From Candidatus Latescibacterota bacterium (GTDB taxonomy: Bacteria; Latescibacterota; UBA2968), in NCBI GenBank assembly GCA_965198115.1, contig OZ240241.1, positions 1,056,001 through 1,120,000 of the forward strand: a stretch of DNA of 64,000 bases. Reading direction: 5' to 3'. This document shows, piece after piece, positions 3,251 to 41,302 of this stretch. Numbering within the stretch: position 1 is the stretch's first letter; each line of letters opens with the position of its first letter. Under the pieces are notes generated by a model, which was not told the DNA's origin, made no database searches, and saw nothing but the letters and a program-made list of their open reading frames with translations. A program made the translations under genes and the position numbers.

Positions 3251-4525
3251 ATGCGTGCAAATATCCGATGCGAGACCGCCCTGATTTTCGTGGCGGTCTT
3301 TTTTTTGTTGGCGACGGCGCAGACCGCAGACGCCGACCGGCTCATTTCCGCCAAGAACAGTCGCACCACCCAAACGGCGATCGGCATCGAACGCATCTAC
3401 ACCGACAGCGTCCGCGCGGCGTTCGGAGCCATACGGGTCAGCGCGGATTCCGCCGTCGTTCGAACAGACGGAGATGACTACCTCTTTTTGTGGGGCGTTC
3501 GGCTTCGAGATGAGGAGCGTAGGATCCGTGCGGACGCCCTGACGTATGCGGCGGACGATTCGACCGCTCACTTCCGCGGCAACGTCCGGATCGAGGATGC
3601 TGGTCGGTCGGTGTTCGCCGAGCGGATCGATTACGACCTGGCGCGTCAGGTGTTGACCGCCACCTCAGGGGTCCGGCTTCTGCTTCGCGACCTTCGCTTG
3701 ACAGCGGAACGATGGTTTCACGACGCGAAGGTCGACACGGGTAGGCTCGAGCGGACAGTGGAGGTGCGACACGGATCGGGGCCCGATCCGATCTACCTGC
3801 GGGCGAATCGAGCGCGTCTGTCCACGCGGGCAGACACCGTCGACTTCGCCGGGGCCTGTCTGCTCACGGTGGGTGCCTATTCTGCTACGGGTGATAGTCT
3901 GACCTACGCGGCCGACAGGGGTTCGGCACGGCTGGCTGGATCGGCCCGCGTTGAATGGTCCACCGAAGGAAACGCGACGGACACGCACGTAGAGGGGCGG
4001 GAGATTCTGATCTCGCTGGATGGCGGGCGTCCGACGGGATTGACCGTCGACGGCCGGGCATCGATCCACTCGTCGAGAACGGCATCGGATTCGACGCGGC
4101 ACTTTCAGCTTCAGTCGGTTCGCGCAGAGATGGACTTCGCCGATGACCAGATGGCAATGATTCGGGCCGAGGATGATTGCGAGATGATGTTTCTGGGCGG
4201 GTCGGGTGACAGCACGTCGATGCGCGCAAAACGAGCAGACCTCGCGTTCGAGGTGGGGCAACTGACCCGGATCGACCTGACGATCGGAGTCGTGTCCCAT
4301 CACGCAAAAAAGCGGGCTCACCAGGTCGAAGGCGAGTATGTCACTCTCTTGTTTGAGCGGGAGCACATTCGGTCCGTGCAGGCCGATTCGTCCGCGACCT
4401 TTCGAGACCTCGACGGGGCCACCCATATCGTCTCCGATCGTCTCGAGTTGACCTTCGAGAACGGCGACCTAGCCTCGGCCCGGGCGGTGGGTGGTGTTTC
4501 TGGAGAAGTGGAGGAAGCCCCGTGA
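3251..4525 (+). CDS. LptA/OstA-family beta-jellyroll protein (multi-repeat)
   Basis: Signal peptide; repeated 'IRADALTY...AHFRGNVRI' OstA-like strands; lies between lptC and lptB. Confidence 0.7.
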
Positions 4526-31533: not shown

Positions 31534-34231
31534 TCAACCGACGCTCACCCTCGATGGAGAAGTCGTCGCATTCTCGCCAGGCCAAACCCTCTACGAAGTG
31601 GCAGGAGCGGAGCAGCGAGAGGTGCCGACACTGTGCTATGATCCACGGCTCGAACCGTTCGGGAGTTGCCGGCTCTGCATCGTAGATGTTGAAGGGATCA
31701 GGAATCCTGTGGCTTCGTGCACGATGCGAGCACAGCCCGGCCTGGTCGTTCGCACCACCACGGAGGTCTTGGAGAAGCACCGCAGGACGCTCCTCGAAAT
31801 GGTTGTGTCAGAGAACAGGGAGGTGGAGGTCGACCCACTTCGGGGTTACGCCTCTCAGGAGCTAACGGACCTTGTCGAGCGTTACGATGTCGATCGTGGA
31901 CGTTTCGACGGAGCACATTCCGGCCAGACTTTCGAGGACGATGACAATCCGTTCATTCTGAGGGACTACGACCTCTGTATTTCCTGTAATCGATGTGTGC
32001 GGGTCTGCGCCGAACAGGAAGGGGACTACGCGATCAGCATCAAGGGGAGGGGATTCGGGACACAGATCACGACTGAGTTCGACGAGCAACTGCGCAACTC
32101 CTCGTGCACCTTCTGTGGGCAATGCGTGCAGACCTGTCCGACGGGCGCACTTGCAGACAGGAAGGCTCTGCGTGCAATGGACGCGCCTGGCGAAATCGAG
32201 GAGACGCGCTCGGTTTGTCCTTACTGTGGCGTGGGCTGCTCGGTCGATCTGATGACAAAAGAAGATCGACTCATCGGAATCCGTCCGGCTATGGATGGGC
32301 CCGCCAACGAGGGAGCCCTGTGCGTGAAGGGGCAGTTTGCGTTCGACTTCGTTCAACATTCCGACCGATTGAAGCGGCCTCTTGTGCGGAACGGTCAAGG
32401 GGACCTAGAGGAAACGGACTGGGATACTGCCCTCGACCGGGCCGCGGACGGCTTCAGGTCCGTGTTGGCCGAACACGGGCGTCACGCCATCTACGGTGTG
32501 GCATCAGGAAGAACCCCGTCCGAGGCCAACTACATCATGCAAAAGTTCATCCGAGTGGGGTTCGGGTCCAATTACATAGACAACTGTAGCCGTGCCTGAC
32601 ACGCTCCCACGGTTGCCGGTCTGGCAGCCACGATCGGAAGAGGAGCGATGTCGAACCCCCTGGAGGACATGGAAAAGCCCGATGTCATCTTCTGCATCGG
32701 GACGAACATGACCGAATGCCATCCCGTTGCGGCCACACGAATCAAAAAGGCCGTGGCGCGTGGCGCCAGGCTCGTCGTGGCGGATCCGCGCAGGATCCCG
32801 CTCGCAGACATGGCCGACCTCTACCTGCCCCTGCGTGTAGGGTCTGACACGGCACTGCTTCTCGGCATGGCTCACGTTATCGCCCGCGATGGATTGGTCA
32901 ATCGCCGGTTTGTCGACGATCGAACAACCGAGAGCGACCCGTTCCTCGAACACGTTACCCAGTCCACGCCGGAATGGGCCGAACGGATATCTGGCGTTCC
33001 AGCCAGGGACATCGAGCGGGCAGCCAAGTGGTACGGGGAGGCCGAACGGGGTGCCATTTACTATACCCTGGGCATCACCGAACACATCTGCGGCGTCGAC
33101 AATGTGCAGAGCTTGTGCAACCTGGCCTTGATGACCGGCAACATCGGTCGAGAGGGAACAGGCGTGAACCCCATGCGTGGCCAAAACAACATCCAGGGCG
33201 CCGGTGACAGCGGGGCGATCCCGTCCAATTATCCGGGATTTCAGTCGGTCGAAGATCCGACTAATCAGAAAAAGTTCGCAGCGGCCTACGGGCGGGAAGT
33301 CGACCTGCAAAAAGGGATCACAAAGGTCCGGGCCCTCGAACAGTGTGGCGAGCACATCCACGCTATGTTGATCGACGGCGAGAACACGGTGGTTTCGGAT
33401 CCGGACAGGGCACATTGCGAACACGCCCTGGATGCGCTCAAACACCTGGTGGTGATCGACATCTTTCTGACGGAGACGGCCGAACTCGCCGATGTCGTCC
33501 TGCCTGCAACAGCGTGGGCTGAGACGGATGGCGTCTTTACGAACACCGAAAGACGCGTTCAGCGGGTCAGGGCGGCGGTATCACCGCAGGGTGACGCCAA
33601 ACCCGATTGGTGGATTGTCTGCCAAATTGCAAGACGCCTGGGCTTCGAGGGTTTCCAGTTTGACGATCCCAAATCGATTTTCAACGAACTTTGCAGTCTG
33701 TCCACAATCTACGCTGGGTTGAATTGGGACCGGGTCGAAAAAGGCGAATACCAGTGGCCTGTTCCCGAAGACGGCCATCCCGGGACGCCCATCCTTCACG
33801 AGGGCGAATTTCCGAACGGCCGCGGTATCTTCAAAGTCATCGGCTATCGGGATCCTGCAGAGACGATCGACGAGGATTACCCGGTCTGGCTCACGACGGG
33901 GCGGCGGCTCGCCTCCTACCACACTCGAACCCAGACTGGCCGGGCCAGGGGTATCGACTATTTGCTTTCGGAGGAGGCTTTGGAGGTTCATCCCGATGAT
34001 GTCTCGGCGTGGGGTCTGAGGGACGGCGCCTGGTGCTCGATCGCCAGTCGCCGGGGAACCGTTCGGGTCAAAGTCCGCGCAACCGACCGGTCACCAAGGG
34101 GGACGGTCTTCGCGAGTTTCAGCTTCAACGACGTGCCCATCAACACCTTGACCGGCTCGGGCTACGACCCCACGACCGACACGGCCGAACTGAAAGTCTG
34201 TCCGGTCAGGGTCGAACCTGACGAGGGGTGA
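31526..34231 (+). CDS. fdhF: Formate dehydrogenase alpha subunit, selenocysteine-containing (UGA at 32597-32599)
   Basis: 2Fe-2S, 2x4Fe-4S and CPYCGVGC motifs; DNCSRA-UGA-HAPTVAGL is in frame with the 32648 ORF; RGQNN; SECIS present. Confidence 0.92.
32611..32629 (+). promoter_or_regulatory. Bacterial SECIS element
   Basis: GGTTGCC-GGTCT-GGCAGCC hairpin starting 11 nt after the UGA, resembling the E. coli fdhF SECIS. Confidence 0.85.
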
Positions 34232-35052: not shown

Positions 35053-36834
35053 ATGTCGACCGATTCCATCACTGATCGGATCGACGCCCTCCGCGACCTC
35101 ATGCGGGATGAGGGGGTTGCGGCCTTCCTCGTTCCCAGCACTGACGAGCACCAGAACGAGTATGTGCCCGCGTGGTGGCGACGACGGGAGTGGATCTCCG
35201 GTTTCACCGGGTCGGCGGGCGACGTGGTCGTAACGACGGTCGATGCGAAGCTATGGACCGACAGCCGGTACCATCTGCAAGCGGCCGAGCAGTTGAAAGG
35301 CTCTGGCGTCGAACTGATGAAAATCGGACGGCCTGATGTGCCGACCCTGGCCGAGTGGCTGGCGTCGACCCTTTCGAGGGATGAGAGGGTCGGATTCGAT
35401 CCCGATGTCCTCTCGAGAAGGGTCCACTCGGACCTGCTCGAAGAGCTGTCACGGAAGGGGATAGAGCTGCATCCCCTGGAGCGGAACCTGGTCGACAAGA
35501 TCTGGACCGACCGCCCGGACGTGTCCAATCGGTCTGTGCGAGTGCTCGAAGAGACTTATGCGGGCGAGCCGGTTCGCGATAAGCTAACGCGTGTGCGTGA
35601 GAAGATGGCCGAGGCTGGAGCCGACGTGCACATCCTTTCATCGCTGGACGCGATTGCGTGGCTCTTTAACCTGCGCGGTGACGATGTAGACTACAACCCT
35701 GTTTTTCTGGCTCACGCGGCGGTGACGTCGGATTCCGCGTATCTCTTCATCAATGAACGCAAGCTGAATGGCGACGTTCGGGCTGCCCTGGACGGTGACG
35801 TAGAGATTCGCCCCTACGAAGCCGTCGGTGCGTTCGTTGCTTCGTGTCAGTCCGACGCGCTTCTGATTTGGGCGGACCCCGAGGCGACAAGCCACAACCT
35901 TGCGCCCGAGAAGGGTGTGGAAAAGCGGTCTCCCGTGGTCGACCTCAAGGCCGTGAAGAATCCGGTGGAACTCAATGGCTTCCGAAGGGCGCACATCGAG
36001 GACGGTGTCGCCATGGTGGCCTTCATCAGATGGCTCGAGGAACACGTTCCCGCAGGCGACGTCGACGAAATGCGGGCTGCCGAGAAGTTGCTGTCGTTTC
36101 GTCGGAAAGGAAACGGGTTCGTCGGAGCCAGTTTCGGAACGATCTCCTCCTACGGGCCCCACGGCGCAATGAATCACTACGCGGTGAGTAACGAGTCCAA
36201 CATACCGCTCGGCACAGACTCGCTGTATCTGGTCGACTCTGGAGGACAGTACAGTTACGGCACGACGGACATCACCCGAACGTTCTGTTTCGGAAAGCCC
36301 ACGCACGAGCAGGTCGAGATGTACACGCGCGTTCTGAAAGGACATATCGCCATCTGCACCCTATCCTTTCCCGAGGGCACCTTCGGAAGGCAATTGGATC
36401 TAGCGGCTCGCAAGCCGCTCTGGGAGGCAGGTCGAAACTATGGCCACGGAACCGGTCACGGAATCGGCCACTATCTGAATGTGCACGAAGGCCCCATTTC
36501 AATCGGCCCTCGCGGCCAGGAGGTGGCCCTGGCTACGGGCCACGTGATTTCCAACGAACCCGGCTACTACGAAGACGGAGCGTATGGAATCCGTATCGAG
36601 AACCTTCTCGCTGTAGTACCGGATCCCGATCGCTCAGCTGGAGACCAGGCTTTTTTGAAGTTCGAGAACTTGACCCGCTGCCCGATTGCGACGAATCTGG
36701 TTGACGTCAGCCTTCTCGATCAGGATGAAAGGGCCTGGCTCAACGATTTCCATCGAATAGTTCGCGAATCGCTTTCCCCGCATCTCGACACGCCGGGGCA
36801 GCAATGGCTGTCCGAACGGACGGAACCCATCTAG
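35053..36834 (+). CDS. Xaa-Pro aminopeptidase P (M24B)
   Basis: SGFTGSAG, WTDSRY, DSGGQY..GTTDITRT, HGTGHGIG, HEGP, EPGYY, GIRIEN. Confidence 0.92.
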   Translation: MSTDSITDRIDALRDLMRDEGVAAFLVPSTDEHQNEYVPAWWRRREWISGFTGSAGDVVVTTVDAKLWTDSRYHLQAAEQLKGSGVELMKIGRPDVPTLAEWLASTLSRDERVGFDPDVLSRRVHSDLLEELSRKGIELHPLERNLVDKIWTDRPDVSNRSVRVLEETYAGEPVRDKLTRVREKMAEAGADVHILSSLDAIAWLFNLRGDDVDYNPVFLAHAAVTSDSAYLFINERKLNGDVRAALDGDVEIRPYEAVGAFVASCQSDALLIWADPEATSHNLAPEKGVEKRSPVVDLKAVKNPVELNGFRRAHIEDGVAMVAFIRWLEEHVPAGDVDEMRAAEKLLSFRRKGNGFVGASFGTISSYGPHGAMNHYAVSNESNIPLGTDSLYLVDSGGQYSYGTTDITRTFCFGKPTHEQVEMYTRVLKGHIAICTLSFPEGTFGRQLDLAARKPLWEAGRNYGHGTGHGIGHYLNVHEGPISIGPRGQEVALATGHVISNEPGYYEDGAYGIRIENLLAVVPDPDRSAGDQAFLKFENLTRCPIATNLVDVSLLDQDERAWLNDFHRIVRESLSPHLDTPGQQWLSERTEPI

Positions 36835-36846
36835 GAGAAGGATCCC

Positions 36847-37062
36847 ATGCCCCTCTTTGATTATGTGTGCGATGGCTGTGGACACGCATTCGAGGCACTC
36901 GTCAGTCCGGAACGAAAACCCGCGTGCCCAGCCTGCGATGGCGTCCGTTTGACCAAGGAGCTTTCACGGTTCGCGGTTGCAGCTGCCACGACAACAGGCT
37001 CGCAGCCCGCTTGCGGAACCTGCGGTGATCCCAGAGGAGCCGGAGCCTGTCAACTGGGATGA
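36847..37062 (+). CDS. FmdB-family zinc-ribbon protein
   Basis: MPLFDYVCDGCGHAFE...CPAC. Confidence 0.85.
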   Translation: MPLFDYVCDGCGHAFEALVSPERKPACPACDGVRLTKELSRFAVAAATTTGSQPACGTCGDPRGAGACQLG

Positions 37063-37065
37063 TCA

Positions 37066-37135
37066 CAAAAAGAGGCGCCGACCTTGCGAAAGATCGACGC
37101 CTCGGGGGAATGTACACCGACACACACACTTGCCA
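37066..37135 (-). ncRNA. Candidate sigma28-dependent small RNA complementary to the flagellin 5' UTR
   Basis: Own sigma28 promoter and terminator, no ORF; GUGUGUGUCGGUG is complementary to the flagellin leader at 38760-38772. Confidence 0.6.
37067..37103 (-). terminator. Intrinsic terminator (minus strand)
   Basis: GAGGCGTCGATCTT-TCGC-AAGGTCGGCGCCTC-TTTTT; the stem works only on the minus strand (G-U pairs). Confidence 0.85.
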
Positions 37136-37141
37136 CTTATT

Positions 37142-37168
37142 GTATCGGCGTGTTCTCGGATCTGTTTA
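37142..37168 (-). promoter_or_regulatory. sigma28 (FliA) promoter
   Basis: TAAA-N15-GCCGATAC. Confidence 0.75.
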
Positions 37169-37175
37169 GCGGAAA

Positions 37176-37394
37176 TTACGTAAGACGTGCGACGGCACCA
37201 GGACCGTTCGGGTGGAGGGGAAGCCCCTCAGCACGATCCGACACGGCGTAGACCGTTTCTTTGACGTTGCTGCTTTCCAGGTCGATCACGTAGTGAACCC
37301 GACTCGCGTCCCAACCTTGCCTCTGAGCGAGCGCGATCAGCACCCGATGGAGTTCTTCCGCGGTTGTTCCGAATTTGACTGCGATCCGTTCCAT
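37176..37394 (-). CDS. Small hypothetical protein (72 aa)
   Basis: GGAGG RBS 7 nt before ATG; MERIAVKFGTTAEELHRVL... Confidence 0.6.
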   Translation of the reverse strand: MERIAVKFGTTAEELHRVLIALAQRQGWDASRVHYVIDLESSNVKETVYAVSDRAEGLPLHPNGPGAVARLT

Positions 37395-37466
37395 TATCTG
37401 ACCTCCGAGCGATCGTCCATCTAACCTAAAGGTCTGAAGACCACACAGAGCTGTCAAGCACCAACA

Positions 37467-37494
37467 GAAAAAGCCCCATCCGTGGGGCTTCTTT
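37467..37494 (-). terminator. Terminator after flagellin 1 (possibly bidirectional)
   Basis: AAAAAGCCCCA-TCCG-TGGGGCTTCTTT. Confidence 0.75.
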
Positions 37495-37551
37495 CGTTCG
37501 AGGACCGAGCGAGGCCTGCTCTTCCTTGAGCGGCTAGGGTGGGGGTCTCTG

Positions 37552-38737
37552 TTACAGGAGCGAGATGACGCCCGCCGCTTGGACGTTGGCTTGCGCGAAG
37601 ACGGAAAGGCCGGTGTGTGAGAATCTGGCTTCTGGCCAGCGCCGATACCTCGAGTGCCACATCGGCATCCCTGATCGTAGAATCGCTGGCCTGATCGTTC
37701 TCCGCCATGACCTCGTTCGCACGGATATTCGTGCCCAGTCGGTTCTGTATCGAGCCGAGTCCACCGCGTGTCTGCACGACCTCCTGGATGGCAATATCGA
37801 TGTTCAAAATTGCGGACTGTGACGCCGAAGCAGAGGAGACGGAAGCAGATCCCAGGTTTAGCACGGCGCCAGAGGCTCGCATGTCACGAATCGTCGTCTC
37901 GATCCGGTGGACCGAGCCATCGTCGGGGCCGACCTGAAAAGTGCCACCGGTTCCAGACTCGATTTCGAGGGCGAGACCATTCAAGTCACCGTCGCGATAG
38001 CCATCGGTGGCCGGGTTAATGCCCTCGGCAGCGTTCTGGCCGCTCAGGACGAGCTGAATTCCAAGACGGTCGAAGTTGGCCACGACCGAAGAACCCGACG
38101 CTACGACGCCGCCCACGCCGTCCGTGTCCAGCGCGGCACCGATCGCGACCGTCTGTGTTACGGTACCGTTTCCAAGCGAAATGCTGCGGTCTCCGGCTGT
38201 GTCGGCAAACAGATAGCGACCGGTCTGGGCGCCGGAGATCTGAGTGGATGTGAGGCCGGTGGTGGGGGAGGCGAGGGCGGTGGATACTGTGACATCTGAA
38301 CTCACCGAGTTGCCGAAGCCGGTCAGCAGCGACGTGTTGTTGTAGGTGGTTGCCTGTGCTATCCGGTCGATCTCGTTGATGAGCTGAACGAACTCGGCGT
38401 TCACGGATTCGCGGTTTTGGTTGTTAACGGTCGAGCTGGCCGACTGAACGGCGAGCTCCCGCATTCTTATCAGGACGGTGTTGACCTCGTTCAGAGCGCC
38501 TTCGGCGGTCTGAATCAGATTGATCGCCTGTTCTGAATTCCGAATGCCCTGGAGGAATCCGGAGATTTCCGACCTCAGTCCTTCAGAAACGCTGAGGCCG
38601 GCCGCGTCGTCGGCCGCTCTATTGACTTTGAGCCCCGATGACAAGCGTTCGATTCGCAGTGTGAGATCCCTGGTCGTGTTCCCAAGGATTCGCATGGAGT
38701 TGAACGCAGGGATGTTGGTGTTGACTCGGAGTGGCAT
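37552..38737 (-). CDS. fliC: Flagellin 1 (frameshift ~37615 near the C-terminus)
   Basis: RVNTN, ERLSSGLKVNRAADDAAG, QTAEGAL, IRDADVA; true end TGLSVFAQANVQAAGVISLL-TAA is in another frame. Confidence 0.9.
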
Positions 38738-38851
38738 GTGAACACCCTTGCGATGGCCAGTGTGTGTCGGTGGTTCTTCAGTTCCTCCCGTGATGGAAAA
38801 CGCCGCCCGTGGAGTGTGTGTGGTCCAAGGCGTTTCCCGGGTCTACGTGGT

Positions 38852-38879
38852 ATATCGGATACGCTTGAGCGAATCTTGA
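38852..38879 (-). promoter_or_regulatory. sigma28 promoter of flagellin 1
   Basis: TCAA-N16-TCCGATAT. Confidence 0.6.
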
Positions 38880-38897
38880 GTTTTGGCCGGAAAAAGT

Positions 38898-39974
38898 TCA
38901 GGCGGGGGGCGACCAGATGCCGGGGAGACGATAGCCGCAGTCCTGGCAGGTACCGTTATTCTTGAGGCGAGAGGAAAGAATCGTAAAACCTAGCCGCTCG
39001 ATCAGCGTTTTCTCACACGAGGGGCAACGGGTGTGCTCGAGGTCGCCCACTCGTCCCGGTGCATTCCCGGCATAGACGAAGCGAAGGCCCTCTTCGTACC
39101 CGATTTCCACGGCGCGCCGAAGGTGGGAGACGCCCGTGGGCTCCGGATCCGTCATTTTGTAGTCGCGATGAAAGGCCGTCACGTGCCAAGGGATGTCAGG
39201 GGAAACGGATGAGATGAAGCGGGCGGCGTCACGCACCTCCGCATCGGACGTGTTCCAGCCGGGGATGAGCAGCGTGACGATCTCGAGCCAGAGTCCGCGC
39301 TCGAAAATCCCCCCGATTGAATCCAGAACGGTCTGCAGCAGGCACCCGAGCTGCCTATAGCTGCGGTCCGACATGGTCTTCAGATCGACCTTATACGCAT
39401 CCGTCTGTGCATCGATGTAATCGAGGACTTCGGGTGTGGCATTGCCGTTCGACACAAACGCTGTTAACAATCCAGCCTTACGAGCCTCCGTGAACACCGA
39501 AATCGCCCATTCGGCAGTGATAAGCGGTTCATTGTATGAGCTAACGATAGAGCCAGCGCCTCGGCTCAGCGCGGCCTGGACCAGCTCTGACTGCGTTATT
39601 TCGGTCGGGCCTCCGGTAGCGGCTGGATCCCGCAGAGCCTGTGACGTGATCCAGTTCTGGCAATACGCACAATGCAGATCGCACCCCAACATCCCGAACG
39701 TGAGCGCCTTGGAGCCTGGAAGCACGTGATAGAACGGTTTTTTCTCGATCGGGTCACATTGAACACCGGCCGCGTAGCCCCACGGGACCTCCAGTCGACC
39801 GTCCTCGTTGAACCGAACTTGACAGATACCCCGCCGACCGGGTCGAATGAGACACCGGTGACCGCAAGCGTAGCAACGTAGCGACCCGTTCTCCTCGTCT
39901 GCATAGAGGGAGCCCAGTCGGGTAAGCGAGTCTATTTTGTCGGCAAGTGAGGAGGTGGCGTCTGGCGGGGTCAT
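38898..39974 (-). CDS. amrS: AmmeMemoRadiSam system radical SAM enzyme
   Basis: CYACGHRC, DPIEKKPFYH, GCDLHCAYCQNW, SYNEP, PWHVTAFH. Confidence 0.9.
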   Translation of the reverse strand: MTPPDATSSLADKIDSLTRLGSLYADEENGSLRCYACGHRCLIRPGRRGICQVRFNEDGRLEVPWGYAAGVQCDPIEKKPFYHVLPGSKALTFGMLGCDLHCAYCQNWITSQALRDPAATGGPTEITQSELVQAALSRGAGSIVSSYNEPLITAEWAISVFTEARKAGLLTAFVSNGNATPEVLDYIDAQTDAYKVDLKTMSDRSYRQLGCLLQTVLDSIGGIFERGLWLEIVTLLIPGWNTSDAEVRDAARFISSVSPDIPWHVTAFHRDYKMTDPEPTGVSHLRRAVEIGYEEGLRFVYAGNAPGRVGDLEHTRCPSCEKTLIERLGFTILSSRLKNNGTCQDCGYRLPGIWSPPA

Positions 39975-40105: not shown

Positions 40106-41302
40106 ATGTCTGCGCTGGTGGTCAATCATAACATAATGGCGATCAACACCGGGCGCCATCTGAAGATCAACAACAGGGGTCTCGGGACGAATCTCGAACG
40201 TCTGTCGTCTGGTCTGAGAATCAATCGGGGAGCTGACGACCCGTCGGGTCTGCAGGTTTCCGAGGGATTTCGAGCAGAAATCGGGGGCCTTTTGACGGGC
40301 ACCCGGAATGCCGAACACGGCACGAATCTGATCCAAACGGCAGAAGGGGCTTTGAATGAGGTCAGTGCCATTCTGCTGAGGATGCGTGAGCTGGCGGTCC
40401 AGTCGGCTTCCTCGACCGTGAACGACGGCAACCGAGAAGCGATCAATGCCGAAGTCGTTCAGCTGACGTCGGAAATCGACCGAATCGCAAACTCTGCGAC
40501 CTACAACGAGCAGACTTTACTCCGTGGGTTCGGCAACACGGTCAGCCAGGATCTGACTGCCTCGAGCGTGCTTCAGTCGACGACGACAGGCGTCGTGGAC
40601 GTGAAAGTTACCGGGGCGGATTCTGGAAATTACATCTTTATCGACAGCGATCCGACAGACAACCAGATTACTTTGGGGAATGGGGTCGCAACGCAGACGA
40701 TCGACCTCGGTGCCGCCCTCGACAATGACGCCGTAGGTGGTGTCGTCGCGACCAGTTCGAGCATCATCGCGAACTTCGACCGTCTTGGGGTCCTGATCAC
40801 ACTGTCGGGTGCCCGTGCGGCGACCCTGGCTGATCCTGCGACGGACGGCTATCGGGATGGGGAGCTCAACGGGTTGACCCTGGCGGTCGATGGGGGAACG
40901 GGCGGCAGCATCCAGGTGGGTGCCGACAACCGGGCCGTCGACCGAATCGAGATCACGATCAACGATCTGTCCGCAACGGGGGCAGCGCTCGCACTGGGCG
41001 GCCTTTCTTTGAGCACGCTCGAGAGTTCGAGGAGCGCGATCTCCTCGCTCGACCTGGCGATCCAGACGATCGCCCAGATTCGAGGCGATCTCGGTGCACA
41101 GCAGAACAGGCTCGGGCACACCATCCGGAAGAACAACATCGCGATCGAGAACATGACAGCATCAGAATCTTCGATCCGAGACACAGATGTGGCGGCCGAG
41201 GTCACGACGTTCACGAAGAACCAGGTGCTGGTCCAGTCGAGCACGGCGCTCCTGGCCCAGGCCAACGCACAACCCCAGAACGCGTTGTCGCTGCTGCAGT
41301 AG
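40106..41302 (+). CDS. fliC: Flagellin 2
   Basis: VNHNIMA, ERLSSGLRINRGADD, QTAEGAL, QVGA, IRDTDVA, LAQAN..PQNALSLL. Confidence 0.95.
   Translation: MSALVVNHNIMAINTGRHLKINNRGLGTNLERLSSGLRINRGADDPSGLQVSEGFRAEIGGLLTGTRNAEHGTNLIQTAEGALNEVSAILLRMRELAVQSASSTVNDGNREAINAEVVQLTSEIDRIANSATYNEQTLLRGFGNTVSQDLTASSVLQSTTTGVVDVKVTGADSGNYIFIDSDPTDNQITLGNGVATQTIDLGAALDNDAVGGVVATSSSIIANFDRLGVLITLSGARAATLADPATDGYRDGELNGLTLAVDGGTGGSIQVGADNRAVDRIEITINDLSATGAALALGGLSLSTLESSRSAISSLDLAIQTIAQIRGDLGAQQNRLGHTIRKNNIAIENMTASESSIRDTDVAAEVTTFTKNQVLVQSSTALLAQANAQPQNALSLLQ

Follow-up and report, generated by a model that had tools for sequence, protein, structure and literature searches.

A candidate gene for a sigma28-type small RNA beside a flagellin gene in the Latescibacterota, with the flagellin leader as its predicted target

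Next to a flagellin gene of an uncultured Latescibacterota bacterium, a short stretch of DNA resembles a complete transcription unit for a small RNA, and it raises the questions of whether such an RNA is encoded there, whether the leader of the neighbouring flagellin mRNA is its target, and whether the circuit could still operate in this organism. The window considered here is the whole stretch of 64,000 nucleotides that was analysed (contig OZ240241.1, positions 1,056,001 to 1,120,000), part of a single-contig genome of 8.43 Mb (G000 below). A preliminary description, made from the letters of the window, had proposed a FliA promoter, a transcript of about 70 nt and a 14-bp terminator followed by U5, and each of these was found on the minus strand where it had been placed. 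The features are listed below in window coordinates.

36847 to 37062, plus strand: zinc-ribbon gene, convergent neighbour, absent beside the element in several relatives
37067 to 37136, minus strand: predicted small RNA of about 70 nt, its start placed by promoter spacing
37103 to 37072, minus strand: 14-bp hairpin of the intrinsic terminator, followed by U5 at 37071 to 37067 (folding z = -3.0)
37115 to 37135, minus strand: GU-repeat seed, weakly structured by unpaired probabilities (column identity 0.94)
37142 to 37149, minus strand: -10 box GCCGATAC of the sigma28-type promoter (column identity 0.98)
Between GCCGATAC and TAAA, minus strand: spacer of 15 nt
37165 to 37168, minus strand: -35 box TAAA of the same promoter, identified by sequence (column identity 0.83 in 14 homologues)
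37176 to 37394, minus strand: ORF72, a conserved 72-aa protein with its stop 8 nt before the small RNA promoter
37471 to 37490, no strand assigned: terminator-like hairpin between fla1 and ORF72
37552 to 38737, minus strand: flagellin gene fla1, the predicted target (Pfam Flagellin_N and part of Flagellin_C)
38754 to 38772, minus strand: target site 1, at -35 to -17 from the AUG (38737), in the fla1 leader (predicted pairing)
38813 to 38822, minus strand: target site 2, within the predicted 5' hairpin loop of the leader
38852 to 38879, minus strand: sigma28-type promoter of fla1 (TCAA, 16 nt, TCCGATAT)
40106 to 41302, plus strand: flagellin gene fla2, intact, with its own sigma28-type promoter, a strong Shine-Dalgarno and no seed site

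Both promoter boxes of the element are assigned by the sigma28 consensus, and the same boxes also stand before the flagellin genes of all element-bearing genomes. A sigma70-like match over the same promoter (9/12) was rejected, as it is not kept in the homologues. Public contigs are identical to window positions 36600-39200 with zero differences, and may stem from the source sample. Among the neighbouring genes, a radical SAM gene (38898-39974, minus strand) lies between the divergent fla1 and fla2, as it also does in G036 and G041, and is absent in several other relatives. Elsewhere in the window, a formate-dehydrogenase-like gene is split by a stop right after a CxxC-type motif (32599-32648), a stop that may be a selenocysteine codon.

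Comparison of homologues bears directly on whether the element is a gene. Over 14 aligned copies, from which the duplicates L084, L085 and L086 of G001, G002 and G010 were excluded, mean column identity reaches 0.98 for the -10 box, 0.94 for the seed and 0.83 for the -35 box, against 0.37 for the spacer and 0.46 for the terminator loop; a clear -10 box is missing in one of 15 copies (G043). Terminator pairing is kept across 15 copies in 178 of 180 cells (98.9%), compared with at most 55% in slid controls, a comparison favoured by taking the structure from one aligned sequence, and the hairpin covaries, with both sides changed in 6 of 12 pairs and 28 G-U cells on this strand. Indels of 1 and 2 nt between homologues argue against a conserved reading frame in the element. 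No Rfam family matches the predicted RNA, and the open-access literature yielded no paper on such an RNA. Conserved boxes, a free spacer and a covarying terminator together look like the pattern of a promoter-driven small RNA gene, and we infer from them that the element is transcribed and depends on sigma28. The proposal of an undescribed sigma28-type small RNA gene has thus held up well: the element is very probably a real RNA gene in this lineage, conserved and restricted to one order.

That restriction was established with a covariance model (R1), built from 7 copies and containing a spurious 5-bp helix that runs through the promoter. The model matched 11 of 53 genomes, and a match in G003 was removed as a different RNA, leaving 10 of the 14 flagellin-bearing genomes of the order (11 of 41 plus 3 of 5 searched) and none of the 39 others. 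These counts are not independent, the genomes being kin, and the 7 model copies are among the 10 positives; the matches independent of model building are G007, G041 and G043. FlhA was found in 12 of the 53 genomes searched, every one among the 14 that bear flagellin. A model search of 151 genomes sampled from the phylum gave no true copy outside the order. Exact-pattern searches returned 9 stretches in species genomes, of which 7 are true and 2 due to chance, and another 9 in metagenomes, where 8 are true (3 of them repeats of copies already known) and 1 is due to chance; metagenome contigs add 5 more distinct copies; the pattern matches L072, L075 and L079, with neither -35 box nor terminator, were set aside as chance. 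Conservation, which the preliminary description had named as a check on its proposal, is in this way evident within the order. The RNA matched in G003 (L068, G003:C33:10356-10457, minus strand) is a separate short RNA candidate with a sigma28-type promoter, an GGCAGGATGCC hairpin and a terminator resembling that of the RNA studied here; its hairpin resembles a CsrA site, and by its sequence this RNA is possibly a CsrA sponge.

The element is linked to fla1 orthologues, the commonest gene order being fla1, terminator, ORF72 and element. It is intact in G001, where neither promoter, leader nor 5' end of fla1 remains, and intact also in G002 and G010, both with a broken fla1, a persistence that speaks against fla1 as its target. 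In the two genera nearest this genome, fla1 orthologues are broken or shortened by differing lesions (L046, L047, L056, L083, L088), with the central domain of the L083 copy lost in frame, and in G006 (L051, about 3560-3620, plus strand) a decayed remnant of the small RNA, having a degenerate -10 box and seed and a broken terminator, directly follows fla1. ORF72, of which 23 proteins were found, occurs in 9 of 53 genomes and always beside the small RNA; it has no match in Pfam or Atlas, and its confidently predicted model (pLDDT 88) has a best structural match of Z 4.7, with none clear.

The fla1 leader was evaluated next to all other start regions of the genome. Both claimed sites are present, site 1 at 17-35 nt before the AUG and site 2 upstream of it, and folding of the free leader is predicted to leave most of each unpaired; the leaders of L083, G041 and G010 likewise show a second CA tract. 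A perfect 13-nt complement to the seed is present at just two places in the genome, namely in the element and in the fla1 leader. Among 7531 crudely called start regions a 13-nt run was found in two, fla1 and one enzyme gene, and a run of at least 11 nt occurred in 5 of 20000 random 150-nt windows. Ranked by hybrid energy among the 7531, fla1 came 1st when the 35-nt 5' part was used, 2nd for compact windows and 3rd for the 22-nt core. With opening costs included it came first of the 350 best in this genome, at -24.7 against -19.6 kcal/mol for the next, some 5 kcal/mol ahead, so that the genome-wide ranking suggested at the outset also points to this leader. Two further candidates were rejected: for the ribosomal-protein gene rpsK, a 12-13-nt complement over the start in G000 is absent in 9 of 9 relatives, and for a DUF5610 gene, considered as a general target, the orthologue leaders examined had the site in G000 and G001 alone.

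In relatives, the pairing exceeded that of 300 dinucleotide shuffles (p<0.05) in 6 of the 8 loci holding both the RNA and a fla1 leader, and was not significant in G012 (p=0.15) and G041 (p=0.14). The shuffle null is lenient, as indicated by trials with a donor seed in genomes that have no intact RNA, where p<0.05 was reached in 3 of 9, with sites inside the coding start (3 of 6 for G003 and G006). In all 7 loci with paralogues to compare, fla1 was the best-pairing flagellin, its lead being only 0.1 kcal/mol in G036 and 0.5 kcal/mol in G041. Against the target, fla1 came first among paralogues in the three genomes where the intact RNA is missing as well; in its favour, the upstream site is weaker where the RNA was not found beside fla1 (G003, G009). 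The AAGGAGG Shine-Dalgarno of most paralogues is missing from fla1 leaders, and that of fla1 is weak. As a separate observation, the fla2 leader of G036 (L052:3422, minus strand) holds a CA tract that pairs with the seed at -23.9 kcal/mol, against -24.0 kcal/mol at the fla1 site. The other flagellin paralogues (L003-L005, L012, L014-L017, L023-L027) have long leaders with common motifs, namely an GGCAAGGATGCC hairpin, CCTGACCAATC, and TACYAAGT near the start site.

Covariation of seed and target was another proposed check, and gave a divided answer. In G036 the 5' end of the RNA and the site changed jointly, producing 11 contiguous pairs, and in L083 a single change in the site preserves a G-U pair; a clear compensatory change was seen in that one genome, G036, and crossed RNA-leader pairs did at least as well as the cognate ones, there being hardly any variation in the seed. 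Nor is G-U bias informative on whether the target pairs as RNA or as DNA, for any transition within an A/C tract leaves a wobble pair possible. Taking uniqueness, rank and accessibility together with these results, the complementarity makes the fla1 leader a reasonably likely target of the RNA. The further suggestion that the RNA sets the ratio of flagellin-1 to flagellin-2 was not sustained: genomes carry several flagellin paralogues, and fla2 here has no site (-13.4 kcal/mol).

How such an RNA might act can be outlined. The small RNA and fla1 would be transcribed jointly from promoters of one class, and the GU-repeat seed would pair with the fla1 leader at one or two sites that are single-stranded and CA-rich. 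With its 5' end the RNA could lengthen this duplex in the direction of the weak ribosome-binding region and so reduce translation of fla1. Since the principal 13-bp helix stops 23 nt before the AUG, a short extension would be needed for the ribosome-binding site to be blocked directly. With the same promoter type before RNA and target, the loop would cap or delay fla1, as an incoherent feed-forward loop, so that one paralogue would be capped or delayed in a filament made of several. We infer both the pairing in vivo and its sign from sequence, and if the pairing is real, repression is considerably more probable than activation. The whole reading, in which a sigma28-transcribed RNA some 70 nt long pairs with the leader of fla1 and lowers translation of that paralogue, and is a silent relic in this genome, is given a probability of roughly 0.55.

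The nearest analogue appears to be FlaX of Vibrio cholerae and V. parahaemolyticus. FlaX is encoded next to one flagellin gene and base-pairs with the leader of another, flaB, at three sites, upstream standby sites included; it blocks 30S binding and alters filament composition (PMC11879080). It is RpoN-class, is cut from the flaA 3' UTR by RNase E and needs ProQ (PMC11879080; bioRxiv 10.64898/2026.08.28.747715), and a preprint reports both a sponge for FlaX and activation of other flagellins by it (bioRxiv 10.64898/2026.08.28.747715). By analogy the element would work most like FlaX, lying beside a flagellin gene and being predicted to pair at multiple 5' UTR sites of one paralogue. Unlike FlaX it has its own sigma28-type promoter and a GU-repeat seed, its predicted target is its own neighbour, and between it and fla1 lie a terminator hairpin and, in most cases, ORF72. 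As promoter class and biogenesis differ, the element is not counted as a FlaX member; homology is not evident, as judged by the lack of an Rfam match.

In E. coli, the sigma28-dependent small RNAs UhpU, MotR, FliX and FlgO are made with the late flagellar genes, and three of the four act on flagellin mRNA. These RNAs bind Hfq and pair inside the fliC coding sequence (PMC10578931), whereas the predicted site of the element is in a leader. FlmR (CJnc170) of Campylobacter jejuni is a FliA-dependent small RNA that damps flagellar output, with class II genes such as flgE as proposed targets (PMC11187230). The element would likewise be a FliA-dependent damper; it differs in its flagellin leader target and unrelated lineage, with no sequence match shown. 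No Hfq match appeared in any of 5 genomes searched, single-contig G000 included; the control search was positive for 5 of 14 named genomes. A search for CsrA was positive in 4 of 5 genomes, and a place in the CsrB/RsmZ class of CsrA sponges was rejected because inspection of the predicted RNA revealed no GGA motif.

Several other explanations must be weighed against repression of fla1, the most substantial of which is that the RNA is real and its main or additional partner is a second sigma28-type transcript, as target or sponge, within a small RNA network in which fla1 would be a single node. The transcript in question, B1 (minus strand, G000:C1:7258474), lies upstream of a gene for a receiver-only response regulator and antisense to a second structured RNA. 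It belongs to a pair of convergent sigma28-type promoters about 400 nt apart (G000:C1:7258075-7258474; L105, L128; orthologues L129-L138, L144, L150); 12 genomes show the B1 promoter and 11 the opposing one, all flagellin-bearing. The plus-strand transcript has a predicted structure of about 150-200 nt with a long closing stem followed by a U-rich run and no Rfam match, and by sequence the locus is likely an undescribed pair of overlapping non-coding RNAs. B1 carries a 15-nt perfect complement, the longest of 41 sigma28-type promoter windows scored, which fits the longer seed of G000 and G001 (one extra GU unit here relative to most relatives). At least 11 complementary nt occur in 3 of these 41 windows (fla1, the DUF5610 gene and B1) against the 5 of 20000 random ones, with a window pattern widened after the hits had been seen. 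Pairing with B1 beats shuffles in G000, G001, G036, G041 and G042, in the last of which no RNA was found. A B1 partnership would also account for retention of the RNA in G001, and the sponge reported for FlaX offers a precedent (bioRxiv 10.64898/2026.08.28.747715). Set against this, the B1 site is missing in G002, G007, G010 and G012, all with the RNA, and is significant in 4 of 9 cognate pairs (G005 borderline, p=0.055), the DUF5610 leader site was seen in G000 and G001 only, within this genus, and the RNA keeps its place beside fla1 and not B1. We regard B1 as main or additional partner as unlikely. Hardly less doubtful is a tentative extension by which the GU-repeat seed would be the hub of an Hfq-less sigma28 RNA network, reading CA-repeat sites in the fla1 leader and B1; repeat slippage would then retune the favoured partner, and lineages losing flagella would show the network falling apart piecewise.

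The RNA could also pair with the fla1 leader and yet activate translation or stabilise the mRNA, for instance by opening structure or by displacing a repressor at a common TG(A/G)CCA motif, to which a similar motif exists in other flagellin leaders. A weak fla1 Shine-Dalgarno with the main site upstream of it would suit such a role, as would the activation of some flagellins by FlaX (bioRxiv 10.64898/2026.08.28.747715), but both sites are predicted to be largely unpaired, fitting standby sites rather than an inhibitory stem, and the 5' end of the seed can pair near or across the start codon too, making activation quite unlikely. It seems improbable, too, that the RNA instead binds a protein through its GU repeats, or that the element is the 3' end and terminator of the ORF72 mRNA, with the fla1 match a by-product of low complexity or inverted duplication. 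The seed is a dinucleotide repeat conserved far above any target site, and no terminator is predicted between ORF72 and the element, as these ideas would have it; on the other side stand promoter boxes conserved against a free spacer, a match that lies in the leader of the flagellin next door and comes out on top across the genome, and, for CsrA as the protein, the missing GGA. G012 has the element where ORF72 is absent, which argues that the element is not merely the tail of ORF72. Lastly, the complementary stretches are inverted repeats flanking a flagellin gene, and might be DNA inversion sites flipping the fla1-ORF72 segment in flagellar phase variation. Invertible segments of the hix type have matched inverted recombination sites and occur in both orientations. 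Here a single orientation was found in every locus with fla1 and the element, the repeats match poorly in most relatives, two contig sets of one sample contain no strand-switching joint, no recombinase is among the annotated neighbours, and one repeat lies between the promoter and the covarying terminator; inversion is thus very improbable, and was rejected.

Repression of fla1 by a sigma28-type small RNA, the preferred reading, would require a sigma factor to read the promoter, and in this genome the flagellar system is decayed. Relative to the flagellar cluster of G041, G000 has no orthologous match for FlgD, FlgE, MotB, FliO, FliR, FlhB or FlhA, and a search for the FlhA family, present in 12 relatives, found nothing in this genome, rated 100% complete. 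Hook, motor and export genes are gone between the fliJ region and flhG, and of FlhF a 3' scrap alone is left, about 400 bases past the gene following fliJ; the regions in decay are G000:C1:4518700-4522000 and 7551000-7557100. The fliA gene is frameshifted with its C-terminal part separated, and is full-length in 4 of 4 relatives searched. Also, flgK and flgL are fragmented, flgI is truncated, and fla1 (frameshifted near 37610, in the C-terminal helix) and most other flagellin loci are frame-changed or cut, and matches to fliW, fliS, flgN and fla2 still span most of their length. Assembly error as the source of the frameshifts was rejected, since the same letters stand at fla1 and fliA in public contigs (both runs from one sample, perhaps the source sample) and the compared ribosomal-cluster genes are in a single frame. 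With no full-length FliA the promoter is probably unread, and the element here is likely a recent relic. To judge from these sequences the element is probably silent in this organism, contrary to the activity first supposed, and is probably what is left of a circuit active in relatives, the step to a relic being our interpretation.

In summary, what has stood of the original interpretation is the small RNA gene and the fla1 leader as its likeliest target, and what has not is the ratio role and activity in this organism; fla1 may also not be the sole partner, B1 being possible as another. By sequence, the order-restricted family appears to be new, flagellar small RNAs are a kind of regulator already known, and the flagellin target is good but predicted. 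No new mechanism is revealed, and the element is probably inactive in this genome; the genome set shows a regulator outlasting its regulon. If the reading is true, a small RNA governing one of several flagellins evolved anew, from unrelated sequence and seemingly with no Hfq involved. The phylum is uncultured and distant from Vibrio, E. coli and Campylobacter, so such control would then be a general design for filaments of several flagellins.
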